Notes under the pieces: generated by a model
The model's database searches: none
Seen by the model: only the letters and a program-made list of their open reading frames with translations
Told to the model about the DNA's origin: nothing
Translations under genes and position numbers: made by a program
Source of the DNA: Comamonadaceae bacterium
Lineage (GTDB): Bacteria > Pseudomonadota > Gammaproteobacteria > Burkholderiales > Burkholderiaceae_C
DNA length: 18,783 nucleotides
Assembly: GCA_947374485.1 (NCBI GenBank)
Contig: CANCCF010000067.1
Location: forward strand, 1 to 18,783
Direction of reading: 5' to 3'
Part shown: positions 1-16,387 of the stretch, in pieces
How the letters are laid out: every line of letters begins with the position of its first letter
Numbering within the stretch: position 1 is the stretch's first letter

Positions 1-60
1 GGCCAGACGCCGTTAGCCGTTACCATCTGCGCTCCCTTCGTTCTGGAATGATTCCTCTGC

Positions 61-2193: not shown

Positions 2194-2201
2194 CACAGCC
2201 G

Positions 2202-2852
2202 CTAAATGGATAGCCCCAGTGCGCCGCTCAAGGTGGACGGCGGGCCAAACTCGGCATCGTGAATATCTGAAAGCGCCAGCATGGCGGCCACCGCATCCTG
2301 GTTGAAGCCGACGCGGGCATGGCCCATGCCGTCACCACCCGCCATGATCAGCCGGTTGATGTAGGTGCTGCATTCCCTGTAACCCCACAGCGTGCGTATC
2401 GTGTTGGCAATGCGCTGGTGGTGCGCCTCTACCGCCTCCAACGCCATGTTTTTACGCTGCTCCAGCGTCAGCTCGGGCTCCAGCGGCATGGGCGCGGTGG
2501 GCAAAACGAAATCAATCTGGTGGTCATCCATGACCGGCGTGGCCGAGGACGGTACAGCCACGGGCGTCATCACCGGCTTTGGCAGGGGTGCGGCCGCCAT
2601 GTGGGCGGCAACGCGTACAAGGGGTTGCACGGGCTTGGACGGCCCAGTGGACGTAGCAGTCGGTGCGGCACGTGCTAGAGAGGGTTCGGCTTGGGGCATG
2701 CGGGCATTTTCCGAAGCCAGCGTGCGCTCCAGTTCAGCCAGCGACGACGGCCGGGCCGGCAGTCGGCTGTCCGACGGCAAGCGCGAGCTTTGCGCCTCTT
2801 TGGTAGGCGAGTCAGTTGCTTTGTCGCTCTTGCCAAAAAACCTGCTGAACAT
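2202..2852 (-). CDS. hypothetical protein (Pro/Ala/Ser-rich N-terminal half, conserved-looking C-terminal ~80 aa)
   Basis: 216-aa ORF with host-like GC, convergent with rep (8-bp gap). It has an ATG start and a low-complexity linker followed by a structured C-terminus (RTLWGYRECSTYINRLIMAGGDGMGHARVGF). I do not recognise the family. Confidence 0.55.
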   Translation of the reverse strand: MFSRFFGKSDKATDSPTKEAQSSRLPSDSRLPARPSSLAELERTLASENARMPQAEPSLARAAPTATSTGPSKPVQPLVRVAAHMAAAPLPKPVMTPVAVPSSATPVMDDHQIDFVLPTAPMPLEPELTLEQRKNMALEAVEAHHQRIANTIRTLWGYRECSTYINRLIMAGGDGMGHARVGFNQDAVAAMLALSDIHDAEFGPPSTLSGALGLSI

Positions 2853-2953
2853 GGATCACTTTCGTCGGATTTTTGCCATGGTAACGCAGACCCCAGTCGT
2901 TTTACAGCCATTGGCGTAAAAAGCCAAGCGCCCTTTGCTGTGGATGGCCTCTG

Positions 2954-3038
2954 CTTCGAAAGCCATGGAGCGGCGAAGGAGGGGCGAAGGAGCGGCGAAC
3001 CCTAGGCCGCTACCCCGGCAAGGGCTCGCCAATCAACC
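2954..3038 (-). pseudogene. degenerate tRNA-Gly(GCC)-like remnant (possible relic att site or decayed duplicate)
   Basis: CTTCGAAAGCCATGGAGCGG (2954-2973) matches 19/20 the sequence spanning the 3' end and downstream flank of the intact tRNA-Gly (5146-5165, CTTCGAAAACCATGGAGCGG). Further in there is a CCTTGCC anticodon-loop-like string (GCC at 3017-3019), a GGTTCG T-loop-like string and a GTTGATTGG-GAGC D-arm-like string. No acceptor 5' strand and no canonical T-arm can be formed. An 11-bp-period GGCGAA(GGAG) triplication (2972, 2983, 2994) disrupts it. Confidence 0.4.
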
Positions 3039-3328
3039 CGTTTACAAGCCAAAACCACTTCGGACTTGGGCTTGATTTTTGTCTAGGGCACCAGGTGTTG
3101 CCCCCGCTTCAATACACCATTTATAGGCGGGATCCGGAGCAACTGGATGCCTGAAGCAGCGATCCTCACATCCGCAACTTGCAAAATGGAAACGGGTTTG
3201 TCAGATATGTACCAGGTTTGATACCAGCCATCACCATGTACCGACGTGACGCCTTCGCACGTGTTCGACAACTCGCTCTGCGGCTGCGGACGTGGGCCCG
3301 GATCAAACTGCGCCTCGGGTTGAAATCA

Positions 3329-5023
3329 ATGGATGACTCCGCTTACACGGAGTGGGTCAGACGGTATGACACACTGGATGGCAACAAAAGGGCCGCTTTA
3401 GCCGAATTGTGCAATGGATTTGCCCATCGGCCGAAAATATCCGTTCTGATGCCGATTTGCAGTCCAATTCACAATTGGCTTGTCGAAGCGATCGAGTCGG
3501 TCCGGAATCAGATATATCCAAATTGGGAACTGTGCATCACTGTGGCCACATCCATTGATCCATCCGTTCGGGCCAGTCTCGAAGACTTCTCCAGAAAAGA
3601 CAAACGCATCAAGCTGGCACTTGTTACAGCGCCCGGGCGATTTTCTATCGCTTCAAATAGTGCGCTTGAACTTGCGACAGGTGAATGGATTGCGTGGCTG
3701 GGTCACAACGATATATTGGCAGAAACGGCCTTGTGCCGGGTCATGGAAGCGTTCAACCTTGATTCAAATGCCGTATTTTTCTACTCTGATGAAGACAAAG
3801 TCAATTCCAAAGGGATTCGATGCGAACCCCTTTTCAAACCTGACTGGTCGCCACATTTGGCGTGTTCCCAGGCATATATTGGGCGCCTGTTCGTTTTCAA
3901 GGCAATACAGGCTAAACCCGAGCTTGAGGAAGATTCAGTTGGTTCACATGACTACGCGCTATGGCTCTCCATCACGAGCAAGCTGAAACGGAACCAGATT
4001 CATCATATAAGCTGCGTGCTCTATCACCGAAGGAAGGGCGCATACCCGACTGCAAGCATCACATCCAGTGAAAACAGGGCAAACCTGAAAGCCTTGAACA
4101 GGTTCATCTCCGACAGGTATTGCGATGAAACCTTGTATGCAAAAAATGGCAAGTCGAAGTTCACATATTCCCTGGAGCGCCGTCTTGGCGTGGAAATCCT
4201 CATCTCGATAATTATTCCAACAAAGGACAAAGTTGATCTTCTGTCAGATTGCATTCAAAGCATTCGCAAAAAGTCAACATGGCATAATTTTGAGATTATC
4301 ATTATCAACAACAATTCCATCGAAAAATCGACTTTTGAGTACCTTGACAAGATCAGGGCAATCGATGCGAGGATTACTGTTGTGGATGCACCGATTGAAT
4401 TTAATTGGTCACGAATCAACAATATAGGAATATCCAGGGCCCATGGGGACTTGTATGTATTTTTAAATAATGACACCCTCATTGTTGAGGGGACCTGGCT
4501 TGAAGCACTGTCAACTTATGCATTGCTCCCGGATGTAGGGGTTGTTGGGGGACTTTTGACGTATGAGGATGGAAGCATTCAGCACTCAGGTGTGGTAGTG
4601 GGCATGGGAGGCTGGGCGGATCATATTTTCTGCACCCAAGCTGCCACGCACGCCTCGGGTACAGGTTTTGTATCTCCGGTATTGACTCGCAATGTACTTG
4701 CCGTGACAGGTGCATGCATGGCAATTTCAAGAAGAACAATCAGGTCAATTGGCCTGTTTGATGAGAACTTTGTTATCTGCGGAAGCGACGTGGAGATGTG
4801 CATACGTTCCCACAAATACGGCTACTTTAATGTAATGTGTGCAGAAGCCAGGTTATTTCACTTTGAATCGAAAACCCGATCATCTTTTGTCCCGGCAATT
4901 GATATTGAACAATCAAGGGAAAAGTATGCGCCCTATCGAAAGGAAAAGATCGACCCGTTCTTCAATGAGAATCTTTCACTGAATACAACATATATTCGTT
5001 TGAAGGATTCACCTGTTGCTTGA
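3329..5023 (+). CDS. two-domain family-2 glycosyltransferase (GT-A fold), orphan
   Basis: The ORF is open from 3179 (TTG). In-frame ATGs lie at 3236 and 3329. I prefer 3329 because the AT-rich composition of the gene starts about there. Domain 1: ISVLMPICSP...AIESVRNQIYPNWEL...YSDEDK (DxD). Domain 2: ISIIIPTKDKVDLL..CIQSIRKKS..FEIIIINNNS...VFLNNDT (DxD-like)...GACMAISR. The pre-domain YTEWVRRYDTLD string is typical of O-antigen/EPS-type GT2 enzymes. Confidence 0.85.
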   Translation: MDDSAYTEWVRRYDTLDGNKRAALAELCNGFAHRPKISVLMPICSPIHNWLVEAIESVRNQIYPNWELCITVATSIDPSVRASLEDFSRKDKRIKLALVTAPGRFSIASNSALELATGEWIAWLGHNDILAETALCRVMEAFNLDSNAVFFYSDEDKVNSKGIRCEPLFKPDWSPHLACSQAYIGRLFVFKAIQAKPELEEDSVGSHDYALWLSITSKLKRNQIHHISCVLYHRRKGAYPTASITSSENRANLKALNRFISDRYCDETLYAKNGKSKFTYSLERRLGVEILISIIIPTKDKVDLLSDCIQSIRKKSTWHNFEIIIINNNSIEKSTFEYLDKIRAIDARITVVDAPIEFNWSRINNIGISRAHGDLYVFLNNDTLIVEGTWLEALSTYALLPDVGVVGGLLTYEDGSIQHSGVVVGMGGWADHIFCTQAATHASGTGFVSPVLTRNVLAVTGACMAISRRTIRSIGLFDENFVICGSDVEMCIRSHKYGYFNVMCAEARLFHFESKTRSSFVPAIDIEQSREKYAPYRKEKIDPFFNENLSLNTTYIRLKDSPVA

Positions 5024-5113
5024 AAAGATGATGCTACTGCCTAGATTGCGCCAGATCGAAGAAGCATAGCCAAGGCGGAAAAAGAGTAAGGCCTGAAAAA
5101 AGTCGCCGGAAAG

Positions 5114-5140
5114 CAAAAAGCCCATCCTTTCGGACGGGCT
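5114..5140 (-). terminator. rho-independent terminator downstream of tRNA-Gly
   Basis: The minus strand reads AGCCCGTCC-GAAA-GGATGGGCT followed by TTTTTGC. This is a 9-bp stem (one G.U) with a T-run, 18 nt after the tRNA 3' end. Confidence 0.7.
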
Positions 5141-5157
5141 CTTCACTTCGAAAACCA

Positions 5158-5233
5158 TGGAGCGGGAAAAGAGGCTCGAACTCTCGACCTATACCTTGGC
5201 AAGGTATCGCTCTACCAACTGAGCTATTCCCGC
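5158..5233 (-). tRNA. tRNA-Gly (anticodon GCC), CCA encoded
   Basis: The reverse complement is GCGGGAATAGCTCAGTTGGTAGAGCGATACCTTGCCAAGGTATAGGTCGAGAGTTCGAGCCTCTTTTCCCGCTCCA. It folds as a perfect 7-bp acceptor (GCGGGAA/TTCCCGC), D-arm GCTC/GAGC, anticodon stem ATACC/GGTAT with loop TTGCCAA, and T-loop TTCGAGC. It is near-identical in layout to E. coli tRNA-Gly(GCC). Confidence 0.93.
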
Positions 5234-5257
5234 ATGGTGGCTACTTGCGTAACCGTT

Positions 5258-5302
5258 TGGTGGCCTGGGGCGGAATCGAACCACCGACACAAGGATTTTC
5301 AA
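5258..5302 (-). repeat. distal att repeat: exact 45-bp copy of the tRNA-Phe 3' portion (anticodon loop to CCA)
   Basis: TGGTGGCCTGGGGCGGAATCGAACCACCGACACAAGGATTTTCAA is identical 45/45 to 11307-11351. Identity stops abruptly on both sides. No 5' half of a tRNA follows. Confidence 0.95.
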
Positions 5303-5465
5303 CACATTTAGCAGCGGCAAACCCAGCATTGACGCGGGTTGCAGCCCAAAAGTGTGTTCCGTGTGACGGACTGTGCTACAGAACCTAAAAGGTGCTTTTT
5401 GCTCCGTTCCACCCAACAGCATTGCTGTTTTTAGCATGACCGTATTGTAGCGCATAAACGAGCCG

Positions 5466-5912
5466 CTACTTGCCAAAGCCCTTACGCAGTGCACCGCTTG
5501 CAGCGTCCATCGCTGCATCCAGTTCACCGCCCTCAACTGCCTCGCGCACCACTGCCAGCACACTTGCCAACTCGCTTGCGCTGGCAACCTCAATTGCCGT
5601 CAGCCCCTTGCTGTTAAGTGCAAGGCACTTGCTGCCGTATTTCACCTGCAGCGCCAGCTTGCCGCCTTCCGTCTTAAACCACCATTGCCGCGCCTTGCGT
5701 GTCTTTTGCTCTGTGCTTTGCACGCCAGTTTCCGCGTCAACTACCGTAACTGTCTTGCTTGCCGTATAGGTAGTGCCAGCCGCAAACGCGGTAGCCATTG
5801 CTATTTGCTGATCAATCTTTACGCACAGTTTGGAGCGGCGCAATTGCACGGGTGCAACCTGCGTAACCTTCTTTGCGGCTGTGAACTTGAGTGAGGCGAG
5901 ACCTGTTGCCAT
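5466..5912 (-). CDS. hypothetical protein (148 aa), island-encoded
   Basis: An ATG at 5912 is preceded by GGAAGGAAAG (RBS) 4 nt upstream; the track's longer version starts at TTG 5927. The protein is MATGLASLKFTAAKK...RQWWFKTEGGKLALQVKYGSK...GGELDAAMDAASGALRKGFGK. It resembles a recurrent ~150-aa island-associated protein type I recall seeing, but I cannot name the family with confidence. Confidence 0.6.
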   Translation of the reverse strand: MATGLASLKFTAAKKVTQVAPVQLRRSKLCVKIDQQIAMATAFAAGTTYTASKTVTVVDAETGVQSTEQKTRKARQWWFKTEGGKLALQVKYGSKCLALNSKGLTAIEVASASELASVLAVVREAVEGGELDAAMDAASGALRKGFGK

Positions 5913-5999
5913 GTGCTTTCCTTCCAATATTTGTTAAAGCACAGTCAAGTCTGGCATCGCCGTTCAAATAGTCGATCAATACACACACGAAAAGGTCTG

Positions 6000-6284
6000 C
6001 TATTTGCGTATTGGTTTTCGCCCAGTCAATTTCGCTTGCTCTTTATTTGCAGCGCTTTGCATCTGTCCGTATTTCATAAACGCCATCTCCTTATCAAAAT
6101 TTGTTACCTGCACCTGGTTATCAGCCGTTTGTGCGATTTCCGCTGCCAATGCACCCTGCAGCTTTTGCTGGCGCTGTTGATCGCTTTGAACGGGGTAAGT
6201 TTGTGCCACTTGCGCTGCCAATTGCCGTTGCTTCATATTGGCAGCAGCCACTGCATTTTGTGGGGCGATTTCACTGTATTTCAT
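6000..6284 (-). CDS. hypothetical small Gln/Ala-rich protein (94 aa)
   Basis: An ATG at 6284 has AGGA 7-8 nt upstream. The gene is co-oriented with, and 87 bp upstream of, the 148-aa gene. The sequence is Q/A-rich and probably helical, with no recognisable domain. Confidence 0.5.
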   Translation of the reverse strand: MKYSEIAPQNAVAAANMKQRQLAAQVAQTYPVQSDQQRQQKLQGALAAEIAQTADNQVQVTNFDKEMAFMKYGQMQSAANKEQAKLTGRKPIRK

Positions 6285-6435
6285 ACTAAATCCTATCTTC
6301 TTCCATATTTATTCATAAGATTTGGCACGAAATATTATGGTTTTATTTGGTGCACATAAATACTGTATGAATATATACACCATACGACAAAAAACAGCAT
6401 ACAACCCAAACACCAGAACTACGGAGAAGCAAGCG

Positions 6436-6888
6436 ATGCGAAACTGGCTTATTGGCAAAAAGCAGGAGTTTCAGTTTGCTGTAACTCTTACTATCAAACA
6501 GACTATTACTGTGAAGAATGACAAAGGAACATACAAGCACAGGCTAAAGCGCAATGACGTAGATGGGATTGCAGAGAGGTTTACGCAAAAACTGAATGAG
6601 CAAGTGTTTGGGCATAGTGCAAAGCGTCACAAGCGCAAGCTGCTCTACATACCCATAGTTGAGGGCGTACACAATGGCAAAAACTTACACCTTCACTTTG
6701 CTATAGGGCACTACCCTAAAGATCGTCTGCCAAATCATTTTCCTCAATTAGTGCAAAACGCCATCACGCTGGTTACTGAACTGGATGAACAGCATAAGGT
6801 TGATGTGATGGACAGTGGTTGGTTTGAATACATAACGAAAGAGCTAAGCGCCAGAAACACGGACAACGTGTTATGGCATTTGGCTTAA
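6436..6888 (+). CDS. small HUH-motif protein, rolling-circle Rep/relaxase-like (150 aa from the preferred start)
   Basis: Three motifs appear in canonical HUH-endonuclease order: FAVTLT (motif I-like, 6475-6492), NLHLHFAIG (His-hydrophobic-His, 6688-6696), and WFEYITKE (YxxK-type catalytic Tyr candidate, Tyr codon 6829-6831). ATG 6436 has GGAG 9 nt upstream. Alternative in-frame starts are 6322 (TTG), 6337 and 6367. The layout resembles the Inovirus Gp2 / YfjJ-YagK type of island protein, but that assignment is from memory of motif architecture only. Confidence 0.55.
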   Translation: MRNWLIGKKQEFQFAVTLTIKQTITVKNDKGTYKHRLKRNDVDGIAERFTQKLNEQVFGHSAKRHKRKLLYIPIVEGVHNGKNLHLHFAIGHYPKDRLPNHFPQLVQNAITLVTELDEQHKVDVMDSGWFEYITKELSARNTDNVLWHLA

Positions 6889-6924
6889 CAGCATTACTGG
6901 CTTAGTGCCTCTTGCTGTCGTTGC

Positions 6925-6948
6925 ATTAAAGCTGAGTGAAGCTTTAAT
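6925..6948 (+). other. perfect 9-bp stem / 6-nt loop hairpin 37 bp downstream of the HUH-protein gene
   Basis: ATTAAAGCT-GAGTGA-AGCTTTAAT. No T-run follows, so it is not a typical intrinsic terminator. It is a candidate nick/ori-type hairpin or simply an RNA stability element. Confidence 0.4.
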
Positions 6949-7264
6949 TGGCTGCGCTTTCTTAAAAATTCGCTACTTCATCAACATAAAAGTCGTCAGC
7001 TACAAAGCAACACGAACACAGCGAGAACGCACGATAGCAAGCGTAGACAGCGTAAGGCATAGCAGAGTAGCTGACTGCTGTAGACGCTGCTGCAACGCTG
7101 GCAGGACATGCAGGAGCAGCGCATAAGAAAATAACAATATTCTTAAGTGGCTTGATTTTATTGGCTATTTTCAGCGCACCAAATAATTTGCCTATTGATC
7201 GACTTCCTGCACTAAATAAAGCAGACTAATGCGTATTAAAAAATTTGGTGAACTGGAGAAATTT

Positions 7265-7831
7265 ATGGCACAAGCAAAATCACTGACGGACGCAGAACTG
7301 CAACAGGTTTTGAATTACATAACAGAGCACACATTTGCGCAGCGCAATCGTGCAATGCTCCTTGTCAGCTTTTATGCTGGCATGCGAGTTGGCGAGATTG
7401 CCAGCTTAAAGCTTGGCGACGTGGTGAACGCAGACGGCAAAGTAAACGCAGAAGTGCGATTGGCGGCAGAGCAAACAAAGGGGCGGCATGCGCGAACCGT
7501 GTTCTTGCCTAAAAAGCTGCGCGATGAACTGCAGAGCTATGTGGACATGCGCTCAGTTAAAAACCCAGCACACCCCCTGTTCATAACGGCGGGGCGCAGG
7601 GCGTTTACGGCGAACGTGATGACGCAGCACTTCTTTTGGCTGTATCGCAGTGCGGGCGTGTCTGGCGCAAGCTCACACAGCGGCAGGCGCACATTCATTA
7701 CGAACTTGGCAGCGAAGGGGATTGGAGTGCGTGTGCTGGCTGGACTGGCAGGGCATCGCAGCATTGCAGTGACACAGCGATACATTGATGTGAACGACGA
7801 TATGAAGCGCAACGCTGTGGAGATGATTTGA
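7265..7831 (+). CDS. minimal tyrosine recombinase (catalytic domain only, 188 aa; FimB/FimE-like architecture)
   Basis: The full catalytic set is present: R in FYAGMRVGEIASL, K in EQTKGRHARTVFL, H-x-x-R in SHSGRRTF, and H and Y in AGHRSIAVTQRYI. Only about 30 residues precede box I, so there is no separate SAM-like core-binding domain. ATG 7265 is preferred; the upstream in-frame ATG 7229 would give 200 aa. Confidence 0.85.
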   Translation: MAQAKSLTDAELQQVLNYITEHTFAQRNRAMLLVSFYAGMRVGEIASLKLGDVVNADGKVNAEVRLAAEQTKGRHARTVFLPKKLRDELQSYVDMRSVKNPAHPLFITAGRRAFTANVMTQHFFWLYRSAGVSGASSHSGRRTFITNLAAKGIGVRVLAGLAGHRSIAVTQRYIDVNDDMKRNAVEMI

Positions 7832-7850
7832 GCGTTACTTAAAGTAACAC
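7832..7850. repeat. 19-bp palindromic site A (GCGTTACTTAAAGTAACAC)
   Basis: It begins 1 nt after the recombinase stop codon. The 7-1-7 core GTTACTT-A-AAGTAAC is a perfect palindrome. It matches the reverse complement of site B (9122-9140) at 18/19 positions. Confidence 0.8.
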
Positions 7851-7867
7851 TTCGCTCTCCCCAATCA

Positions 7868-7901
7868 CCCCCATTGCTTTGCCGCATGGGGGTTTTCTTT
7901 T
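7868..7901 (+). terminator. rho-independent terminator of the small recombinase gene
   Basis: CCCCCAT-(11-nt loop)-ATGGGGG followed by TTTTCTTTT. Confidence 0.65.
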
Positions 7902-7912
7902 CCTACGACGAT

Positions 7913-8103
7913 TAAAGTGATTTTCTTGTCAAGCGATTTTCGTCAATTTATTTTTTATTTTTACAGTCAAAAATGATAGCAATAAAGTCAATGTCTATGC
8001 GCTTTTCGCAATTTTTCAAAATCACATGTTCACCCATCAACGCCTCGCAAATTGGTCAAATAAATCACTTTATTTTAAACTACTTACATATTCACAAATC
8101 ACT
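7913..8103. promoter_or_regulatory. AT-rich control region with repeated GTGATTT motif upstream of the 327-aa gene
   Basis: GTGATTT occurs on the + strand at 7917-7923 and on the - strand at 8019-8025, 8062-8068 and 8096-8102. An 11-mer TAAAGTGATTT (7913-7923) is inverted at 8062-8072. A related GCGATTTTC lies at 7933-7941. A strong RBS, AAGGAG (8109-8114), lies 15 nt before ATG 8130. Confidence 0.45.
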
Positions 8104-8129
8104 GTGGATACTAAATAAAGGAGTTAGTT

Positions 8130-9113
8130 ATGGCTAAGGCAGCAGTTAACAGCGAAATCGCAACTAAGGTAATAGGTTATATTGACAGGCTTGCAGAGCA
8201 ACAAGCAGAGGTCACTGAGTACAATGAACGTAGCAATGAAGCGTTGTACAAAATGCTTGGAAAGGTTAAACAAGTTTGTGAGTATGTAAATGCCTGCGAA
8301 GATCCCGCAGATATTGTAAAGAAGATGCGCAAGATGCTGAAAGCTGATCGCAGCATTAAGACGCAAGCCAACAGTAGTATCGCGTCTATTATTATCAAGT
8401 GTCTTGTTCCCACAAGCCGCAAGACTCAGTGCGTATATGCCAGCGTTATTAAAGCCGCAGAGGCTAATGGCATTACAGGGGAAGGGCTTGCAGAGTACAT
8501 TCGCGCAAATAAAGGGATTGAAAATTTGCGAAAGATTCATGCAGGCGTAACGACGAAAGCTGCGAAAAGCTTGGACGCTGAAATCGCAAATGCTTCACAA
8601 AGGCTGCTGCGTATGCTGTGCGATACAAGCTCCAAACAGCGGCTTGGCGTAGTTAAGCTTGAGGGTGTTAAAAGCGTTAGCATGTTGCACGACAGGTGCG
8701 AGCTTACGCACTTGATGTGCAAGGAGAATAAGGTGACTGGTGAGCTTGAAATCGTCGCAGTCGCCTACCCCACGCTCCAACTGCAAAAGCTCGTACTGGA
8801 CAACTATGTTGCAGCCATGCAAGTTGCAGCCGTGCAGAAGACGAACGAGTTTTACGCAGAATGCAAGCGTATTGGTGCGGACATGGACACTGTGAATACT
8901 TGGCGCGAAGCCAACGGCATACAGTCTGGTAGCCAGGCGATTGCGTTGCTCGCAAGCATTGGCGAGATGCTTGACGCTGACATGGTGCGGCGTGTGAATG
9001 AAGCAGAGGCTGCTGCCAGCAAACGCCTTGCCATTGCGTATTCATCGCAAGTTGTGGGCGTTGACTGCAGCAAGCAGTCCGCGTCCCAGTCAAACTTCGT
9101 TATCGCCGCTTAG
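8130..9113 (+). CDS. hypothetical protein (327 aa), no recognisable domain
   Basis: The ORF is long and clean, with an ATG plus AAGGAG RBS, island-like composition, and a terminator downstream. It looks predominantly helical and soluble. No motif I can assign. Confidence 0.7.
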   Translation: MAKAAVNSEIATKVIGYIDRLAEQQAEVTEYNERSNEALYKMLGKVKQVCEYVNACEDPADIVKKMRKMLKADRSIKTQANSSIASIIIKCLVPTSRKTQCVYASVIKAAEANGITGEGLAEYIRANKGIENLRKIHAGVTTKAAKSLDAEIANASQRLLRMLCDTSSKQRLGVVKLEGVKSVSMLHDRCELTHLMCKENKVTGELEIVAVAYPTLQLQKLVLDNYVAAMQVAAVQKTNEFYAECKRIGADMDTVNTWREANGIQSGSQAIALLASIGEMLDADMVRRVNEAEAAASKRLAIAYSSQVVGVDCSKQSASQSNFVIAA

Positions 9114-9121
9114 CCGCCACA

Positions 9122-9140
9122 GTGTTACTTTAAGTAACAC
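9122..9140. repeat. 19-bp perfect palindromic site B (GTGTTACTTTAAGTAACAC)
   Basis: A perfect 9-1-9 palindrome 8 nt after the stop codon of the 327-aa gene. Its central TTTAA is the reverse complement of the TTAAA in site A. Confidence 0.8.
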
Positions 9141-9144
9141 CACA

Positions 9145-9177
9145 AAAAAGCCCACTCGTTAAAACAGTGGGCTTTTT
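9145..9177. terminator. bidirectional rho-independent terminator between the convergent 327-aa and lipoprotein genes
   Basis: AAAAA-AGCCCACT-(9-nt loop)-AGTGGGCT-TTTT. The 8-bp stem is flanked by an A-run and a T-run. Confidence 0.75.
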
Positions 9178-9209
9178 AGCATTGACGGAATTATATTTTT
9201 TAAATAAGC

Positions 9210-9818
9210 CTATATTTTTTGCTTAACCTCTTTGCAATTTAAAGAAGTTCTGTAAATTATTACATAATTATTTGGCGTTACAACCATTTTGCCATTGGAT
9301 TTGGAGAAATTGGGATGCACATTTAAATTGTAAGTTTCATCCAATATCGTCAAATTGGTCCTATCCAACACTACAATTTTTGCGCCCAATATTGAGTCTT
9401 TATTTGGTAGCCATTTTTTAAAGAATGGACTTGTTTTAGTATCATTATCTTTACTATCTATCCAGTCCCCAGTAAATTCCCTCACATCCTTCACAGCGCA
9501 ATCCCACGCATATTTGTAACTACTGGACGTTACTTCACACAATGGTAGCCTGTCATCTTTTATAACATTATCACCTTTAACTATAATATATTGCTTACCA
9601 ACAATATATTTTTGAGTAACAGCATCTGCGGGACTATGAAGACTTTTAACATCACTTGGCTCAGCTATCCCCTGCTCACTCCAAGTCCCATCGCAATCCA
9701 AAAACTTTTCCGCATCTGCATTTGAGGAGGACTTATTAAATAGCTCAACGACTCTTTCACAGCCAGTTATACAAAGCGCCAATAATAATATTGTACATAT
9801 TTTAGTAAAATTTTGCAT
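9210..9818 (-). CDS. putative lipoprotein (202 aa), very AT-rich gene
   Basis: The N-terminus MQNFTKICTILLLALCITGCERV is a signal peptide with lipobox I-T-G-C. There are four further Cys in the mature part. The gene is markedly more AT-rich than even the rest of the island. Confidence 0.75.
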   Translation of the reverse strand: MQNFTKICTILLLALCITGCERVVELFNKSSSNADAEKFLDCDGTWSEQGIAEPSDVKSLHSPADAVTQKYIVGKQYIIVKGDNVIKDDRLPLCEVTSSSYKYAWDCAVKDVREFTGDWIDSKDNDTKTSPFFKKWLPNKDSILGAKIVVLDRTNLTILDETYNLNVHPNFSKSNGKMVVTPNNYVIIYRTSLNCKEVKQKI

Positions 9819-9899
9819 ATTATTTGAATATCTTCATTTTGCATTAAAATACATTTATTTCCAAATTAGCGCTTTAAAGTGCATGAGCATGTGCGGCAT

Positions 9900-11195
9900 T
9901 TAAATTGCCGCACTACCGCTTTGCTTGTCGTCAGTTGCCTTCGTTTTGGTTGCTTCCACCTTCTTCACCCCCATCCGCTTGCCTGCAATAACATCTGCTT
10001 TTAGCGCGGGCGTTAAATGTCCATAGTACCGCTCAATCATCCCTATGCTCGTGCCCATCTGCTTTGCCAGTGTCGCAATTGGCATGCTGTCCTGCAGTAG
10101 CGCGAAGTGAGCATAGGTGTGGCGAAGGCTGTACAGCGTACGTTTTTCCTTCACATCCTTGTTCTTATCCAAGCCGCTGTCACGCATTAGGTGACGGAAT
10201 GTGCCGTTCAGCGCATTCGTTGCTTCACCAGTCCGCAACCTGAACACCAGCACATCCAGCTTCTTTTTCAGCAGTGCATCAAACTCCAGCTTCTTCAAAT
10301 CGTCAAAGCGCTCCTGTATGCGCTTCAAGTAATCCTCCGCTGCATGCCGTGCAATCAGTGTCCGTTTGCCTGTCTTGCCATTGACGGTGAACTGCAAGTA
10401 GCGCTGCCCGTCTTTCGCAATCCATTCAACATCACGCCATTTCAAATTCAACGCTTCCGTGCCATGCCGCATCCCTGTGTTCGCCAGCACCAGCACATAG
10501 TCCCGCAGCAGTTCACGCATGTGCTGCGTCTTCGCCATGTGCCCTATCGTGCTCCACTTCACCATGTAGCTTGTAAGGGACTTGTATTCTGCAAAGCTAA
10601 ACGCCTCGCGCGGCGTAGCCTTCGCGCCCTTATTCTTCATTTTGGGCACTTGCGATTGCGACATCCACCCGCGCTGCACAGCCGCATCAAACACACGATT
10701 GAGGGCAGACGTGTGCGTTGTGACGGTGCTGGCAACTGGCACCTTCTTCATTTCTTTTGTGCGCCAGTCGTCAAATGCCTTCAAGTGCTCATAGCCAATC
10801 GTGCCAATGTTGAGCTTGCCAAAAAACGGGATGAGATAACGGTTGGTGGCTGCGATGTAGCTGTTGTAAACGCTTTTGCCCACGCCGCCATCAAGCTGAT
10901 CCTGCATTTCCTTCACTGCAATCTTTGCGATTGAGTCAAAGCGCTTGGTAACGATTGGCAGATTTTCTGCCTTTAAAAATCGTGCCCTGTCATATGCCTC
11001 GCAAGCTGCCTGCGTTGCGTATTCCAAGTTGCGCTGTTTGGTGCTGATACGTTGCCACTTGCTGTCCCGCAACTTAAAGCGAGCCTGCCAAATTTTGCTG
11101 TCCAGCCGCTTGTAAAGCACCACTTCACCATCGCGTGCATACACGATGTGCATAGGTGCTTTGCTGGACTTGGGGGCTGCAGATGAGTTCGCCAT
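9900..11195 (-). CDS. int: tyrosine-type site-specific integrase (island integrase, about 431 aa)
   Basis: The C-terminal catalytic domain has LANTGMRHGTEALNLKWRDV (Arg), LYSLRHTYAHFAL (H-x-x-R region) and MIERYYGH (Tyr). An N-terminal arm/core-binding region is present (KIWQARFKL...). The gene lies directly next to tRNA-Phe. The ORF is open to 11288; I prefer ATG 11195 (MANSSAAPK...). Confidence 0.9.
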   Translation of the reverse strand: MANSSAAPKSSKAPMHIVYARDGEVVLYKRLDSKIWQARFKLRDSKWQRISTKQRNLEYATQAACEAYDRARFLKAENLPIVTKRFDSIAKIAVKEMQDQLDGGVGKSVYNSYIAATNRYLIPFFGKLNIGTIGYEHLKAFDDWRTKEMKKVPVASTVTTHTSALNRVFDAAVQRGWMSQSQVPKMKNKGAKATPREAFSFAEYKSLTSYMVKWSTIGHMAKTQHMRELLRDYVLVLANTGMRHGTEALNLKWRDVEWIAKDGQRYLQFTVNGKTGKRTLIARHAAEDYLKRIQERFDDLKKLEFDALLKKKLDVLVFRLRTGEATNALNGTFRHLMRDSGLDKNKDVKEKRTLYSLRHTYAHFALLQDSMPIATLAKQMGTSIGMIERYYGHLTPALKADVIAGKRMGVKKVEATKTKATDDKQSGSAAI

Positions 11196-11271
11196 GTTGT
11201 GCGTTACAAATGAACTGCTGTTCAGTGTATACGCATAAGCAGGAACTGTGCTAAGACCGTGTAATGGAAAA

Positions 11272-11297
11272 GCGTAGCACACTTTCATGTGCTACGC
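11272..11297. promoter_or_regulatory. 10-bp perfect inverted repeat (6-bp spacer) at the island edge, candidate integrase/regulator binding site
   Basis: GCGTAGCACA-CTTTCA-TGTGCTACGC lies 10 bp from the tRNA-Phe 3' end and upstream of the int start. Each arm contains the TGTGCTAC motif also found at 5372-5379; the shorter TGTGCTA core recurs at 11247-11253. Confidence 0.5.
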
Positions 11298-11306
11298 CTT
11301 ATGGGA

Positions 11307-11382
11307 TGGTGGCCTGGGGCGGAATCGAACCACCGACACAAGGATTTTCAATCCTCTGCTCTACCGACTGAGCTACCGGGCC
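11307..11382 (-). tRNA. tRNA-Phe (anticodon GAA), CCA encoded; integration target
   Basis: The reverse complement is GGCCCGGTAGCTCAGTCGGTAGAGCAGAGGATTGAAAATCCTTGTGTCGGTGGTTCGATTCCGCCCCAGGCCACCA. It has a canonical D-arm, anticodon loop TTGAAAA and T-loop TTCGATT, and is close to E. coli tRNA-Phe. The acceptor stem carries one C5.A68 mismatch (GGCCCGG versus CCAGGCC). Confidence 0.92.
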
Positions 11383-11391
11383 AAGCCTCAA

Positions 11392-11397
11392 ATTATA
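11392..11397 (-). promoter_or_regulatory. candidate -10 box (TATAAT) for tRNA-Phe
   Basis: The minus strand reads CTGCTATAATTTGAGGCTT followed directly by the tRNA 5' end. A perfect TATAAT sits 9 nt upstream of mature position 1. I found no convincing -35 at 17-bp spacing. Confidence 0.4.
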
Positions 11398-11418
11398 GCA
11401 GGAAGAATGGCGCCTCCT

Positions 11419-11441
11419 GGCAAAAACTGCTGATCAGTTTG
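11419..11441 (-). terminator. weak terminator-like hairpin after ntrX
   Basis: The minus strand reads AAACTG-ATCAG-CAGTTT followed by TTG. The stem is short (6 bp) and overlaps its own T-run. Confidence 0.3.
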
Positions 11442-11446
11442 GCAAA

Positions 11447-12124
11447 TTACAAACCGCTGCGTTTGCCGCGGCTCAGGTCCACGCCGAGCTGCTTGAGTTT
11501 GCGGTAGAGGTGGGTACGCTCCAGACCGGTCTTTTCGGCCACGCGGGTCATGGAGCCGTTCTCGCGCGCCAAGTGGTACTCGAAGTAGGCCTTTTCGAAT
11601 TCGTCACGCGATTCGCGCAGGGGCTTGTCGAGCATGAAGCTCTGGTTGGGTTGGGGGCCGCTTTCCTGCACGGCATGGGCTACGGCCAAAACCGTGTCCA
11701 CGGTGTCGTGCACCACGGCTTCGCGCGGCACGAGTTCAATGGCGGCGGGCTTGCGCAGGATGCTGCGGGCCAGCCCCTGCTCGACTGCCTTGAGCAGTTT
11801 TTGCATGGTGATGGGCTTTTCCAGAAAGGCCAGGGCGCCGATCTTGGTGGCCTCCACTGCGGTGTCGATGGTGGCGTGGCCGCTCATCATGATGACGGGC
11901 ATGTTCAGAAGGCCGGTGGAGGACCATTCCTTGAGCAGGGTGACGCCGTCGGTGTCGGGCATCCAGATGTCGAGCAGGACCAGGTCGGGCCGCTCGCGCA
12001 GGCGGGCCGAACGCGCCTGCGCGGCGTTTTCCGCCAGCTCGACCTGGTGGCCGCCGTCGTTCAGAATTTCCCACAGCAGGTCGCGTATGCCGTGCTCATC
12101 ATCCACCACCAAAATATTTGCCAT
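11447..12124 (-). CDS. ntrX: NtrX-like response regulator: receiver domain + C-terminal Fis-type HTH, no AAA+ sigma-54 module
   Basis: REC: ILVVDDEHGIRDLL...DLVLLDIWMPDTDG...MSGHATIDTAVEATKIGALAFLEKP. C-terminus: FEKAYFEYHLARENGSMTRVAEKTGLERTHLYRKLKQLG (Fis-type HTH). Only about 225 aa, so there is no room for a central ATPase domain. ATG 12124 (MANILVVDD) is preferred over TTG 12160. It lies immediately downstream of ntrY. Confidence 0.8.
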   Translation of the reverse strand: MANILVVDDEHGIRDLLWEILNDGGHQVELAENAAQARSARLRERPDLVLLDIWMPDTDGVTLLKEWSSTGLLNMPVIMMSGHATIDTAVEATKIGALAFLEKPITMQKLLKAVEQGLARSILRKPAAIELVPREAVVHDTVDTVLAVAHAVQESGPQPNQSFMLDKPLRESRDEFEKAYFEYHLARENGSMTRVAEKTGLERTHLYRKLKQLGVDLSRGKRSGL

Positions 12125-12156
12125 CGTGTCCGCGTTCCCTTGGGTTGTCGTGCCAC

Positions 12157-14439
12157 TCAACTCTGTGAGCTATTTACAACAGGCAATGATAACGACACTT
12201 GTGCGCCCACTATCTTTCCTTCGACCACGCGGTTGCTGATGTCCACGCGCGAGCCGTGTTCATCGGCAATTTTCTTCACCACCGCCAAACCGAGGCCCGT
12301 GCCCTTGGGCTTGGTGGTGACATAGGGTTCGAAGGCGCGTTTGAGGATCGCGTCTTCAAAGCCGGGGCCCTGGTCCAGCACGCTCAGGCGCACCCGGCCC
12401 TTGGCCTGCAGCCAGTTGGTGCGCAGCACCACCGGCCCGGCCACGCTGCCATCGGCATGCGGCAGGTCGCTGGCATCCTGGGCGTTTTGCAGCAGGTTGT
12501 GGATGACCTGGCGCAGCTGCTGGGCGTCGCCGCGCACAGGCGGGCAGTTGGCGTCGAGTTCGAGCCGCACCGGCACATGGGTGGCATCGGCCTCGTAGAG
12601 TTGCTGCACGTCCTGCACCAGGGCGTTGAGGTTGACGGGCTTGAGTTCGGCCGCGGGCAGGCGGGCGTAGTCGCGGAACTCGTTGACCAGGCGCTTCATG
12701 GCGTCGACCTGGTCGACGATGGTTTTGACCGATTTGTTGAGCACCTGTTGCTCGGGCGGCAACAGCTTGCCGCTGAGCTTGATCTCCAGACGCTCGGCCG
12801 ACAGCTGAATGGGAGTGAGCGGGTTCTTAATTTCATGGGCCAGGCGCCGCGCCACCTCGCCCCAGGCCTGGGCCCGCTGGGCCGAGACGATTTCGGAGAT
12901 GTCGTCAAACACCAGCAAGCGGGCGTCCCCAGGCAGTGTCGCGCCCCGGGCAACGATGGTCAGTGCCCGGTCAAACGGTGAGTGCATGGGGGCATTGCTG
13001 CCGCCGAGCTCGAAGGTCTGCTGCCAGTGGTCGGGCTCGTGCTCCAGCTTGGCCAACATGAAGTCGGCAAACTGGGCCTGCACGGCTTGGCCAAAGTCCT
13101 GCAGGCCTGCAACACCGGCCAGCGGCTGGCCGATGTGCGCGGCCAGTGGGGCCTGCAATATGCGTGTGGCGCCGGGGTTGGCCGACAGCAACTCGCCTTG
13201 GGGGCCCAGCACAATCACCCCGGCCGTCAGGTTGTCCAGAATGGTTTGCAGATTGGCGCGTGCCGCGTCCACCTGCGCCATGCTGTGCTCTACCGCCTGC
13301 CGCGCATCGGAGAGCTGCGCGGTCATGGTGGCAAAGGCGCGGGTCAGGCCGCCGAGTTCGTCTTTGCCTTGCATGGCCAGTTTGGGTGTCAGGTCACCCG
13401 CTGCGACCTGGCTCACACCTTCTGCCAGCAACAACAAGGGGCGGGCGAGCTGGTTGCCCAGCACCACGGCCATCAGTATGGCGGCAAACACCGCCAAAAA
13501 CAGACTCAGCGTGAGGGTGCCGATGTACATGCGCTTGAGGCCCTCGCGCGCCAGCGCCCGCTCCTGGTACTCGCGGTTGGCGGTATCCACGGCCAGGGCG
13601 TTGGCCACCAGATTGCGCGGCAAGGCCTTGGAGGCCAGCAGGAAGCGCGGCTCCGGGTTCAGACCCAGGCCCGAGGCTGCCAGCGGCACCAACACGCGGA
13701 TGCGTGCGCTCGCCTGCGCATCGGAGCCTGCATCTTCCAGACCCTCAATCCAGGCGCTGGCGCGCTCAGAGCGCGCGGTGCGGAACTGGGCGCTGGTGGG
13801 CTTGTCCGGGCTGAGCTGGATGCGCGACTGCCCGCCGCTGGCCACCAGGGTACCCGCGCTGGTCCAGATGGCGGTGTCCGTGGCGCCCAGTTGGTCCACC
13901 ATCTTTTCCAGTTGGGTGCTGGCGTTGTTGTCAGACACCTCATTGAGCTGGGGTGCAGCCGCGCGCACTTTGGCGGTGAACTCGCTGGAGAGGGTGTCCA
14001 GCGTCACCCGCCCCAGACTCAGGCCTGCTTCCAAGGCCCCTTCGACCTTGACATCGAACCAGGTTTCAATCGAACGCGAGACAAACTGGTACGACACCAC
14101 GTAAATCAGCAGGCCCGGGGCAAAACCCACCAAGGCAAAAATGGCCGCGAGCTTGACCAGCAAGCGGCTGCCAAAACGCCGCTGGCGCAAACGCAGGGTG
14201 AGGCGATAGCAGACCCAGGCAATGCCCGCCAACAGCACCGCCGCCACGGCCACATTGACATAGAACAGCAGCGCGTAGTTGCGTTCATACAGGTCGCGGT
14301 TGTTGGTGGCCTGCATCAGCATGTAGAGCAGCACCATGCCAATCAGCAGCATGCACAGCGAACCCACCGTCACGGCCCGTCGCACGAGGCGCGAGCTGTG
14401 GCGCACGCTGGGCAGGGCGGCAAGGCCCGGGTCGTTCAT
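12157..14439 (-). CDS. ntrY: NtrY-like sensor histidine kinase (TM-HAMP-PAS-HisKA-HATPase)
   Basis: 760 aa. It has N-terminal hydrophobic segments and a second TM before a HAMP-like region (LARPLLLLAEGVSQVAAGDL). The H-box AHEIKNPLTPIQLSAERL is characteristic of NtrY. N/G boxes: QVIHNLLQNA, DQGPGF, GTGLGLAVVKKI. Its start overlaps the stop of the upstream gene (ATGA). Confidence 0.88.
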   Translation of the reverse strand: MNDPGLAALPSVRHSSRLVRRAVTVGSLCMLLIGMVLLYMLMQATNNRDLYERNYALLFYVNVAVAAVLLAGIAWVCYRLTLRLRQRRFGSRLLVKLAAIFALVGFAPGLLIYVVSYQFVSRSIETWFDVKVEGALEAGLSLGRVTLDTLSSEFTAKVRAAAPQLNEVSDNNASTQLEKMVDQLGATDTAIWTSAGTLVASGGQSRIQLSPDKPTSAQFRTARSERASAWIEGLEDAGSDAQASARIRVLVPLAASGLGLNPEPRFLLASKALPRNLVANALAVDTANREYQERALAREGLKRMYIGTLTLSLFLAVFAAILMAVVLGNQLARPLLLLAEGVSQVAAGDLTPKLAMQGKDELGGLTRAFATMTAQLSDARQAVEHSMAQVDAARANLQTILDNLTAGVIVLGPQGELLSANPGATRILQAPLAAHIGQPLAGVAGLQDFGQAVQAQFADFMLAKLEHEPDHWQQTFELGGSNAPMHSPFDRALTIVARGATLPGDARLLVFDDISEIVSAQRAQAWGEVARRLAHEIKNPLTPIQLSAERLEIKLSGKLLPPEQQVLNKSVKTIVDQVDAMKRLVNEFRDYARLPAAELKPVNLNALVQDVQQLYEADATHVPVRLELDANCPPVRGDAQQLRQVIHNLLQNAQDASDLPHADGSVAGPVVLRTNWLQAKGRVRLSVLDQGPGFEDAILKRAFEPYVTTKPKGTGLGLAVVKKIADEHGSRVDISNRVVEGKIVGAQVSLSLPVVNSSQS

Positions 14440-15089
14440 TTGCTGCTTTCGGCGACCAGGGGCATCAGCACGCTGGCCGAGATGTCCCAGTCGGTCTGGC
14501 CCAAGGCGCCAATCTGGAAGGGCCGGGGCAACTGGCCCAAGTCAAGTTTGAAGCGGAAGTCGAGCTTGTACTTGATGGCCGGATCCAGCTCTGCTGCATC
14601 GGCAATTTTCCACTTGGCTACGCGCTTGATGGCCGAGAGGGCCTGCGCCAGCGAGTCAAAACTCTGGTTGAGCGCCAGCCCCACGCCGCTGCTGGCCGCG
14701 GAGCCGGAGCCCACATTCAAACGCCAGCGCCGCGTCAGGGGCTGGTAGGCCAGGCGCATGTGGCGCTCGACACCCTGCACCTTTTTGTCGTACCAGTACC
14801 AGCGCTCACGCAGCACGTCGGCGCTGTAGACGAACACCATGGGGATGCCCTTGAGCAGTGCATCTTCCACCGGCGTTGGCGTTTCAAATTGCAGCTGGGC
14901 CGAGAGCAGCCACTCGTCGTCGTTGCGCTCCAGGCGCGTCTGGGTGATGTCAGTGGCGACCTGGGCTTGCGCCATGGCCGCTGCCATCAACAGCCAGGTA
15001 ACAAACAGGCGCACTGCGACGAGCAAGCCCTTGCCTTTGGGCGAGTCAAGCAGCGCGCTTTTGCAGCAGGGCGTAAAAAAATCCGTCAT
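14436..15089 (-). CDS. secreted DUF4390-like protein conserved between rsmB and ntrY
   Basis: 217 aa from ATG 15089 (GTG 15095 also possible). It has a signal-peptide-like LLVAVRLFVTWLLMAAAMAQAQ. It overlaps the rsmB 3' end by about 44 nt and is coupled to ntrY. The position matches the rsmB-DUF4390-ntrY-ntrX arrangement I recall in betaproteobacteria; the family name is from memory. Confidence 0.6.
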   Translation of the reverse strand: MTDFFTPCCKSALLDSPKGKGLLVAVRLFVTWLLMAAAMAQAQVATDITQTRLERNDDEWLLSAQLQFETPTPVEDALLKGIPMVFVYSADVLRERWYWYDKKVQGVERHMRLAYQPLTRRWRLNVGSGSAASSGVGLALNQSFDSLAQALSAIKRVAKWKIADAAELDPAIKYKLDFRFKLDLGQLPRPFQIGALGQTDWDISASVLMPLVAESSK

Positions 15090-16368: not shown

Positions 16369-16387
16369 TGTTCTTCTTGCTTGCGTT

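Follow-up and report, generated by a model that had tools for sequence, protein, structure and literature searches.

The PICMIs (phage-inducible chromosomal minimalist islands) of Vibrionaceae are defined by an integrase, AlpA and a DUF3987/DUF5906 primase, and by integration next to fis; rolling-circle replication has been attributed to them, and they carry a defense gene as cargo and are packaged as concatemers in the full-size capsids of a virulent helper (PMC10803314). Virion-encapsidated integrative mobile elements (VEIMEs), small integrative elements of marine bacterioplankton, were defined by sequencing as concatemers from virions, a form consistent with plasmid-like rolling-circle replication; they mostly have tyrosine integrases, some have two recombinases, and many of their genes are of unknown function (PMC9618062). 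Tycheposons, from Prochlorococcus and other streamlined plankton, target tRNA genes and are flanked by partial repeats of them; a tyrosine integrase faces inward from one end, cargo fills the middle and a small replication module occupies the opposite end. Without packaging genes of their own, they have reportedly been detected in vesicles and capsids (bioRxiv 10.1101/2020.12.28.424599). Here, we analyzed an 18,783-nt stretch of DNA from a Comamonadaceae bacterium (contig CANCCF010000067.1, positions 1 to 18,783; hereafter the window), in which a 6-kb island lies at the 3′ end of a tRNA-Phe gene. The island is a real, intact site-specific integrative element. On balance, we consider it probable that it is also a helper-dependent rolling-circle replicon that integrates at a tRNA gene and belongs to a 5-14 kb family of freshwater Burkholderiales; this family appears to be undescribed, with the window as its first-noticed member.

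We searched the window for tRNA genes with ARAGORN and compared its proteins with Pfam, PHROGs, NCBIfam and PADLOC (Table 1). An earlier note on this DNA, made from the sequence letters, had described an exact 45-bp direct repeat of the tRNA-Phe 3′ portion around 6004 bp of lower-GC DNA, and had called the arrangement a textbook integrative element. The repeat was reproduced in full (5258-5302 and 11307-11351; 45/45 positions identical) and is the longest of the region; the pair encloses 5303-11306, exactly 6004 bp, and the tRNA-Phe gene to which the right copy belongs is intact. The lower GC content was borne out in part, since it falls to 0.36-0.55 within the island compared with 0.62-0.68 in the flanks, but the low-GC tract also takes in 2750-5250, to the left of tRNA-Gly. 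The neighbors of the island are this tRNA-Gly gene on one side and, on the other, an open reading frame (ORF) that we name NtrX-like response regulator from its translation only.

Empty counterparts of the site were sought with a tolerant probe consisting of the tRNA-Gly 5′ end, a gap of 10-40 nt and an uninterrupted tRNA-Phe. It recovered four metagenome contigs in which a spacer of 15-24 nt separates tRNA-Gly from an intact tRNA-Phe; when the species' own empty junction was probed exactly, no match was returned. Two loci (L050 and L052; loci used for comparison are designated by L numbers) have the 24-nt spacer that the earlier note had predicted. In L051, where the two tRNA genes are 15 nt apart and the insert is absent, synteny with the window extends over both flanks, with nucleotide identities of 76% to window positions 128-2468, 70% to 11307-16467 (the side with the NtrX- and NtrY-like ORFs, as read from translations) and 87% to 17081-18783. 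Because tRNA-Gly and tRNA-Phe adjoin uninterrupted in these relatives (L050-L052), the 6 kb represents an insertion and is not ancestral. Support for the description as a textbook integrative element comes from the attachment (att) repeats, an integrase gene adjoining the tRNA, the shift in composition and the empty site in a syntenic relative.

The insertion site has further features of its own. The second low-GC tract (2750-5250; GC 0.43-0.55), immediately left of tRNA-Gly, holds an ORF for a 614-aa family-2 glycosyltransferase (3179-5023, +; PF00535, 1e-30), and in L051 approximately 1.3 kb stands in place of the ~2.7 kb left of tRNA-Gly. This swap marks the tRNA-Gly/tRNA-Phe locus as a hotspot, in which a second region varies independently. 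The P2-like Burkholderia phages phiX216, phi52237, phiE202 and PhiBP82.3 have an annotated attP that is the 45-bp 3′ end of tRNA-Phe(GAA) and is 94.6% identical to the island repeat. The island integrase had no tblastn match (E<=1e-5) in phage records, and the use of the same crossover segment by the island and these phages looks like convergence.

Within the island we found the same set of ORFs as the earlier note, which had considered it to be made almost entirely of unknown genes. This proved to be overstated: four of the seven genes, together with one non-coding element, constitute a recognizable mobility backbone, comprising the integrase, a rolling-circle Rep with its putative origin, a small tyrosine recombinase (sYR) and a 148-aa protein that does match a domain family (DUF6641), and the remaining genes are without a family match. 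Of the absences listed in the note, those of AlpA/Xis, conjugation, phage-structural and resistance genes held up in all four databases, which gave no defense match in the island either; a known defense system was rejected on the lack of a PADLOC match. A scan for promoters and terminators showed no enrichment over shuffled sequences.

Table 1. Features of the tRNA-Phe island and its immediate borders (window coordinates).
Feature	Position	Strand	Remarks
tRNA-Gly(gcc)	5158-5233	-	ARAGORN; Rfam tRNA, 69.5 bits; chromosomal left neighbor of the insertion site
attL, distal att repeat (copy of tRNA-Phe 3′ end)	5258-5302	-	45 nt, 100% identical to 11307-11351
DUF6641 protein, 148 aa	5466-5912	-	ORF to 5927 (153 aa); PF20346 8e-8, phrog_31551 2e-21
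orf94, Q/A-rich small protein, 94 aa	6000-6284	-	82% aa identity in L001
HUH Rep, predicted rolling-circle initiator, 173 aa	6367-6888	+	ORF 6322-6888; assigned from motifs and homologues
Two-hairpin non-coding element, putative origin	6888-6970	+	Directly 3′ of rep stop; aligned in 19 loci
Hairpin 1	6888-6918		Invariant unpaired internal-loop bases TTACT / TCT(TG)
Hairpin 2	6926-6947		Part of the element 3′ of rep
sYR, 188 aa, catalytic domain only	7265-7831	+	ORF 7229-7831 (200 aa); PF00589 1.4e-25, phrog_216 6e-39
Palindromic site 1, GCGTTACTTAAAGTAACAC	7832-7850	.	Directly 3′ of sYR stop
Terminator-like (intrinsic) hairpin	~7868-7901		Past site 1; read by eye
orf327, 327-aa ORFan, variable cargo	8130-9113	+	No family match
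Palindromic site 2, GTGTTACTTTAAGTAACAC	9122-9140	.	3′ of orf327; bidirectional terminator 9144-9177 next to it
Predicted lipoprotein, 202 aa, variable cargo	9210-9818	-	Signal peptide and lipobox LCITGC read from sequence
Tyrosine integrase, 431 aa from Met at 11195	9900-11195	-	ORF to 11288 (462 aa); phrog_1 2e-29, PF13102 7.6e-5
tRNA-Phe(gaa), intact	11307-11382	-	ARAGORN, Rfam; 3′ 45 nt (11307-11351) = attR

The integrase gene faces inward and adjoins the intact tRNA-Phe, with a start that is probably the methionine at 11195, giving 431 aa. The integrase is 55% identical to that of a tRNA-Phe element in Polynucleobacter (L022), and its homologues in relatives carry PF00589. From the att anatomy and the empty site, we infer that it catalyzes integration and would be capable of excision.

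The replication functions lie at the other end of the island. We assigned the product of 6367-6888 as a rolling-circle Rep with complete motifs I-III on the basis of its sequence. Its start follows from the lengths and alignments of its homologues, which comprise at least 231 clusters of ~173 aa, many of them with a precomputed match to PF23343. In alignments of 21-60 homologues, motif I (FAVTLTxKQ), the HUH motif (H-L-H) and motif III (Y-I-T-K) are invariant and occur in the order typical of Rep proteins. The protein has no match to Pfam Rep_1, Rep_2 or Rep_trans. An AlphaFold2 (AF2) model built from 60 sequences reached a predicted local distance difference test score (pLDDT) of 85, and its nearest folds, at a weak level of similarity, were the nuclease and origin-binding domains of adeno-associated virus (AAV) Rep.

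Directly past the rep stop codon, ~85 nt are conserved as DNA in 19/19 aligned loci. RNAalifold analysis of these loci yielded 15 base pairs, six of which show compensatory changes; one covarying pair is CG in nine sequences, AU in six and GC in four, and is broken in none. Overall, 98.2% of cells are paired in the resulting two-hairpin element, compared with 22-54% in slid controls, and none of 500 shuffles reached the observed values. It occurs once in the window, and no Rfam family matches it. Unpaired loop bases of the type conserved in hairpin 1 are the kind of loop that HUH proteins nick, and the element is probably the replication origin and a candidate nick site. A 73-aa ORF that overlaps it (6905-7126) is probably not a gene.

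The second recombinase, sYR, is 188 aa long when counted from the start that is conserved in the family (7265). All catalytic residues are kept, as R, TK, SHSxRR, H and QxY are invariant in 19 elements, and the nearest solved structures are the C-terminal domains of XerA, XerC and XerD. Homologues of ~190 aa with up to 47% aa identity occur on 342 plasmids, mainly of Acinetobacter, Piscirickettsia and Legionella. The plasmid homologues, e.g., NC_013858.1 434862-435434, are annotated merely as 'site-specific integrase', their role is apparently uncharacterized, and their gene neighborhoods gave no functional clue.

A 19-nt palindrome accompanies sYR in the window, where it is present in two copies with none expected (200 shuffles). 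The two sites form a perfect inverted repeat (18/18), 1269 nt apart, and each consists of arms of roughly 6 bp around a 7-bp A/T spacer, an architecture that resembles a simple tyrosine-recombinase core site. A Rhodoferax locus (L003) and the L039-L044 element have pairs of their own at equivalent positions (~11450 and ~14197 in L003; ~7695 and ~4345 in L039), with the sequence TGTCG-7 nt-CGACA and in direct orientation. In the window, L003 and L039-L044 alike, a homologous terminator (GCCCAC...GTGGGC), which is a strong one in the window, invariably comes after the distal copy. The pairs are specific to each element and bracket a cargo block beside sYR, and inversion or cassette exchange mediated by sYR at these palindromes is possible; homologous recombination in conserved linker sequences would account for the paired-site data equally well. 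L055 has the first palindromic site, while L001 and remoter members are without such sites. A palindrome 3′ of sYR was therefore ruled out as a universal core feature, being present only in the clade nearest the window.

DUF6641 is the remaining backbone protein, and its gene points away from rep. The match to PF20346 scores 32.8 bits against a cut-off of 27, and the protein is present in every full related locus. A confident AF2 model (pLDDT 82.6) comprises a long helix, a five-stranded sheet and two helices, with a conserved basic N-terminus; fold matches in the PDB and BFVD and sequence-profile relatives of known function were both absent, and a literature search for DUF6641 returned no mention. 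The gene next to it, orf94, has no match in the four family databases, and its conservation is limited to the window's nearest clade, where L039 and L055 have ORFs of 91-94 aa in the corresponding place.

The earlier note had further suggested that every gene serves hijacking, replication or interference. Our comparison does not support this, as orf327 and the lipoprotein are variable cargo and are lacking in all but one of the related elements, the exception being a partial orf327 match in L023. Orf327 had no match in Pfam, PHROGs, NCBIfam, PADLOC or the PDB, and only two other clusters were found among 5.8e9 proteins. The orf327 module has an AT-rich upstream region of its own, and in L058 and L059 it behaves as a discrete unit: homology of L058 to the window stops exactly at the terminator end (9177), the right boundary of the module, and in L059 the module is preceded by the truncated remains of another sYR allele and an identical first palindromic site. 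The lipoprotein family comprises 28 representative clusters in 1.8e9, again with no match in the four family databases or the PDB.

Related loci occur in Polynucleobacter, Limnohabitans, Rhodoferax, Comamonadaceae, Burkholderiales metagenome-assembled genomes and metagenomes. Every complete locus contains the DUF6641 gene (-), rep (+) with the origin element and the sYR gene (+), with a large integrase nearby. Of the proteins that the earlier note had proposed to search for as a co-occurring set, those of this backbone do recur together, while orf327 and the lipoprotein do not. Integrases, sites and cargo differ among the elements, whose sizes range from 5.1 to 13.7 kb. The integration targets include tRNA-Leu (L019, 53-nt repeat, 5.1 kb; L006, 15-nt repeat, 6.3 kb), a tRNA-like 3′ end (L020, 45-nt repeat, 6.4 kb), tRNA-Met (L024, 45-nt repeat, 8.8 kb), tRNA-Lys (L010, 27-nt repeat, 9.5 kb) and tRNA-Phe (L022, 45-nt repeat, 13.7 kb), and some members have an integrase of a different lineage (24-26% identity to that of the window) and no tRNA. 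In the closest relative, L001, DNA homology to the window is confined to 5466-7825, that is, DUF6641 through sYR. Furthermore, backbones with at least 90% identity recur in different chromosomal surroundings, next to different cargo and integrases (P4-type among them), which points to recent mobility and modular exchange. Since homology is limited to the backbone and near-identical backbones have other partners, we regard the backbone as the mobile core, and integrase and cargo as exchangeable modules.

We scanned 63 non-backbone ORFs from 11 elements, in which cargo reaches ~8 kb. Matches comprised one type II restriction-modification (R-M) pair, AAA ATPases, H-NS, MarR regulators and tautomerases, as well as envelope proteins (an outer-membrane beta-barrel protein, an OmpA-like protein and adhesin E), with most remaining ORFs being without known function. 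None of the 63 encodes a capsid, terminase, relaxase, coupling or type IV secretion system (T4SS) protein. With no capsid, terminase, relaxase or secretion genes in any member, transfer must depend on a helper.

Individual members show additional features. The type II R-M pair is complete (C5 methylase, 6e-86, and an NgoFVII-like endonuclease) and lies at 6806-9846 of L024, a placement made by ORF size alone. A recurring block of two unknown proteins and an AAA ATPase stands beside an H-NS gene in L003 (12431-14205) and L039 (4937-6560), and could be a candidate defense module. L010 has a second integrase gene right past the distal att repeat (9536-10960), and in L020 a partial att sequence, the third copy, lies 5 kb past the element (18971-19005), both signs of tandem or serial integration at one tRNA. 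On a 7860-nt ENA contig (ERZ1426828) with a 94%-identical DUF6641, sYR is truncated (139 aa) beside a DDE transposase, and the backbone is followed by two P4-type (Arm-DNA-bind_3) integrases, indicating decay and integrase swapping within the family. Finally, a 5048-nt ENA/JGI contig (ERZ21989587) carries a complete set of a 221-aa cargo gene, sYR, Rep, DUF6641, a 56-aa ORF and a 437-aa integrase; it is nearly exactly element-sized, without chromosomal genes, and could be an episomal form or the product of an assembly break at the att sites.

A link to phages emerged from IMG/VR. One contig, IMGVR_UViG_3300044546_001066 (L026), is a fragment of a T4-like myovirus with gp21 protease, gp22 scaffold, gp23, UvsY and helicase genes, and its gp23 shares 60% identity with the gp23 proteins of Methylophilales phage Melnitz and Pelagibacter phage HTVC008M. 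Directly past gp23 (10001-10600) it carries an intact Rep (54% aa identity) together with the two-hairpin element, followed by a gene for an SNase-like nuclease, and it has no DUF6641, sYR or integrase. A scan of IMG/VR with the origin motif recovered this contig only. The presence of Rep and origin here indicates that they form a unit that moves on its own and is common to a lytic phage and the family, which fits a helper or antagonist relation, without proving one. Two further contigs (L027 and L028; 10.7 and 8.5 kb) encode a Rep with 32% aa identity that adjoins a 556-aa large serine recombinase and a 669-aa DNA methyltransferase, and they appear to represent another type of small integrative element with a related Rep. 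The window island itself was ruled out as a prophage remnant or relative of a known phage, as its DNA matches to phage and plasmid records consist of the tRNA segment only and tblastn with Int, Rep and DUF6641 over 50,697 phage records gave no match.

Taken together, these observations suggest the following model for an island that is probably still active. The 431-aa integrase would recombine the 45-bp tRNA-Phe 3′ end, integrating and excising the element. In the excised circle, Rep would nick the hairpin 3′ of its own gene and initiate rolling-circle replication, producing single-stranded DNA or concatemers. sYR would then resolve multimers to monomers or recircularize concatemers, much as Cre/lox and plasmid resolution systems do, a role that we propose because of this analogy and its plasmid-borne homologues; the neighboring cargo module may be a further substrate, rearranged by sYR at the palindromic sites. 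DUF6641 could be an accessory nucleic-acid-binding or regulatory factor of the replicon, which is a guess from its position and its conserved basic N-terminus, and orf327 and the lipoprotein would be accessory cargo. Transfer would be helper-dependent, most likely by way of a phage that packages the concatemers of rolling-circle replication in its capsids, a route shown for PICMIs and proposed for VEIMEs; this is the least certain step. The analogy with minimalist satellites or mobilizable islets, already drawn in the earlier note, stays our best functional reading, by resemblance.

A bolder version, which we rate as improbable, is that freshwater Burkholderiales harbor a new class of phage satellite whose core for replication and processing is this backbone, with the lytic T4-like phage carrying Rep and origin as its helper or antagonist, and that sYR and the palindromes form a system for cassette capture or inversion. 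If true, such a system would explain how near-identical backbones come to carry entirely different cargo, and would be integron-like, inside a rolling-circle satellite.

Several observations weigh against a helper-dependent rolling-circle replicon. Neither an excised form nor a concatemer was found, none of the related contigs examined has terminal overlaps indicative of circularity, and neither a pac or cos site nor a small terminase was found. The Int, Rep and DUF6641 proteins are in no phage record (tblastn, 50,697 records), and the family is nearly absent from IMG/VR, where three Rep matches and one origin match all belong to other kinds of element. For Rep itself, the window protein falls below the Pfam cut-off for PF23343 REP_ORF2-G2P (16.2 vs 27.8 bits), and the structural matches to AAV Rep nuclease domains are weak (Foldseek probability 0.84-0.96, E ~0.02, template modeling (TM) score ~0.4). 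Functions other than a nick site are conceivable for the conserved hairpins, namely those of a single-strand origin, an origin of transfer (oriT) or an RNA element. Moreover, an excisionase or regulator is recognizable neither in the window nor in the relatives, among whose small ORFs we found no excisionase or helix-turn-helix protein.

Some of these same observations would suit an integrative mobilizable element (IME) moved by conjugation, in which the HUH protein is a Rep-type relaxase, the hairpins are an oriT and a co-resident conjugative element supplies coupling protein and mating pore. An HUH endonuclease does adjoin a conserved hairpin with an invariant loop, packaging genes are absent from the 63 cargo ORFs of 11 elements, and the family is nearly missing from viral contig collections; Rep-related relaxases and IMEs are reportedly documented in reviews. 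We nevertheless consider this unlikely. In MOB relaxases the tyrosine precedes the HUH motif, while Rep proteins have motif I, HUH and then the tyrosine, which is the order seen here, and no MOB relaxase or type IV coupling protein (T4CP) match was obtained in the window or its relatives. In addition, the best structural neighbors are viral Rep nuclease domains, T4CP, relaxase-accessory and T4SS genes are present in none of the 11 elements, and Rep with its origin was found in a lytic T4-like phage genome.

No dedicated transfer route is assumed if the island is an integrated plasmid-like replicon that spreads only by chance, through transformation, vesicles or generalized transduction, or a decaying remnant kept for its cargo. 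The absence of transfer genes and of a recognizable excisionase is compatible with this, and decay does occur, given that sYR is cut by an insertion sequence in one relative and reduced to a remnant in L059. Tycheposons, too, are reported from vesicles and capsids without packaging genes (bioRxiv 10.1101/2020.12.28.424599). On the other hand, there is no mismatch between the att repeats and no broken ORF, the catalytic residues of Rep, sYR and integrase are conserved across the family, near-identical backbones reside at several chromosomal sites in several hosts, and the distribution over several genera argues for efficient, ongoing horizontal spread. We therefore regard this explanation as quite unlikely.

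Lastly, an integrated satellite or defective derivative of a filamentous single-stranded DNA phage (of the RS1 or TLC type of Vibrio cholerae), with coat and assembly supplied by a helper inovirus, would agree with the size of 5-6 kb, with REP_ORF2-G2P, the inovirus/plectrovirus Rep family, being the sole Pfam family touched by Rep, and with a Rep beside a divergently transcribed small gene, which we take to recall the rstR/rstA layout, but it is very unlikely given that pI/Zot-type ATPase, coat-like and secretin genes are in neither the window nor 11 relatives, that the family uses its own integrase at tRNA genes and not XerCD at dif, that cargo extends to ~8 kb with R-M systems and outer-membrane proteins, and that we know of no helper inovirus for the family's hosts.

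The helper-dependent rolling-circle replicon that we favor would matter chiefly for its hosts. Polynucleobacter, Limnohabitans and their relatives dominate freshwater bacterioplankton and have streamlined genomes with few classical plasmids, prophages and conjugative elements, and for this reason gene exchange among them is poorly understood. Widespread integrative rolling-circle replicons of 5-14 kb would provide a concrete vehicle that carries ORFans, restriction-modification systems and envelope proteins from one tRNA site to another. In addition, the family would extend the range of minimalist hitchers such as PICMIs, VEIMEs and tycheposons into fresh water and to replication based on an HUH Rep. 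DUF6641 would gain its first genomic context and a testable role, as would the ~190-aa tyrosine recombinases borne on plasmids. Several carrier strains are cultured isolates, among them Polynucleobacter sp. 86C-FISCH (L020), AP-Kaivos-20-H2 (L006/L009) and AM-25C3 (L022) and Limnohabitans sp. 2KL-17 (L017), so that the predictions are directly testable.

Returning to the known systems, the island resembles PICMIs in its size (~6 kb; six or seven genes), in having an integrase and a replication function of its own, and in lacking capsid and packaging genes. Unlike PICMIs, it has no AlpA (PF05930/PF12728; no match in island ORFs of at least 40 aa) and no primase (DUF3987 / DUF5906; no match in the window), sits in tRNA-Phe instead of next to fis, would replicate by means of a putative HUH Rep, carries the additional sYR and DUF6641 and belongs to a different host clade. 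With VEIMEs it has in common the small size, integration, planktonic hosts and absence of capsid genes, as well as a tyrosine integrase (as in most VEIMEs), two recombinases (as in some) and many unknown genes. The replication genes reported for VEIMEs are, in contrast, primase/helicases or RepA/ParA, and VEIMEs were sequenced from virions, whereas the window family is nearly absent from IMG/VR. The layout of 5258-11382 is that of a tycheposon, with integrase, replication module, cargo and tRNA target, and the planktonic, streamlined hosts are alike. Tycheposon hallmarks are, however, an integrase lineage of their own and a primase, helicase and polymerase; none of the latter three was matched in the window (Pfam, PHROGs), where the replication module consists of the HUH Rep with its putative origin, sYR and DUF6641.

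More distant systems were compared in the same way. The packaging and capsid-redirection genes (terS, capsid, sid/psu/delta) and primase-helicase of phage-inducible chromosomal islands (PICIs), capsid-forming PICIs (cfPICIs), P4-like elements and PICI-like elements (PLEs) are absent from the window and the 63 cargo ORFs, as are the pI/Zot ATPase, coat genes and XerCD/dif integration of inoviruses, the island having its own integrase at a tRNA. Charybdis elements (bioRxiv 10.1101/2025.08.03.668216) are archaeal, have no Rep and were set aside as unrelated.

The pairing of an HUH Rep with a nearby origin has precedents. In plasmids of the pC194/pMV158 type, a small HUH Rep containing motifs I-III is encoded close to a hairpin origin, and actinomycete integrative and conjugative elements (AICEs) of the pSAM2 type combine an integrase at a tRNA gene with rolling-circle replication after excision. 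The window differs from both in that its Rep matches none of the plasmid Rep families in Pfam, it has no FtsK-like Tra and its host is Gram-negative, and the partners sYR and DUF6641 are unique to the window family. As for sYR, the FimB/FimE invertases are likewise ~190-200 aa long, without an N-terminal core-binding domain, and lie near short inverted-repeat sites, but the match to NF007370 reaches 37 bits against a cut-off of 221, and the pairs of L003 and L039 are direct and not inverted. Plasmid resolution systems of the Cre/lox or ResD type offer further analogues, with sYR homologues being frequent on plasmids. An integron is not indicated, as sYR consists of the catalytic domain only and scores 37.6 bits against a cut-off of 265 for the NCBIfam integron integrase, and as the orf327 module brings its own AT-rich upstream region where integron cassettes are promoterless and attC-flanked.

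Overall, our best reading, by analogy, places the island functionally closest to the PICMI and VEIME satellites and gives it a tycheposon layout, with membership in none of the three. Literature searches returned no account of this backbone. The kind of element, a small helper-dependent integrative replicon, is known; its core of HUH Rep with origin, sYR and DUF6641 appears to be new.

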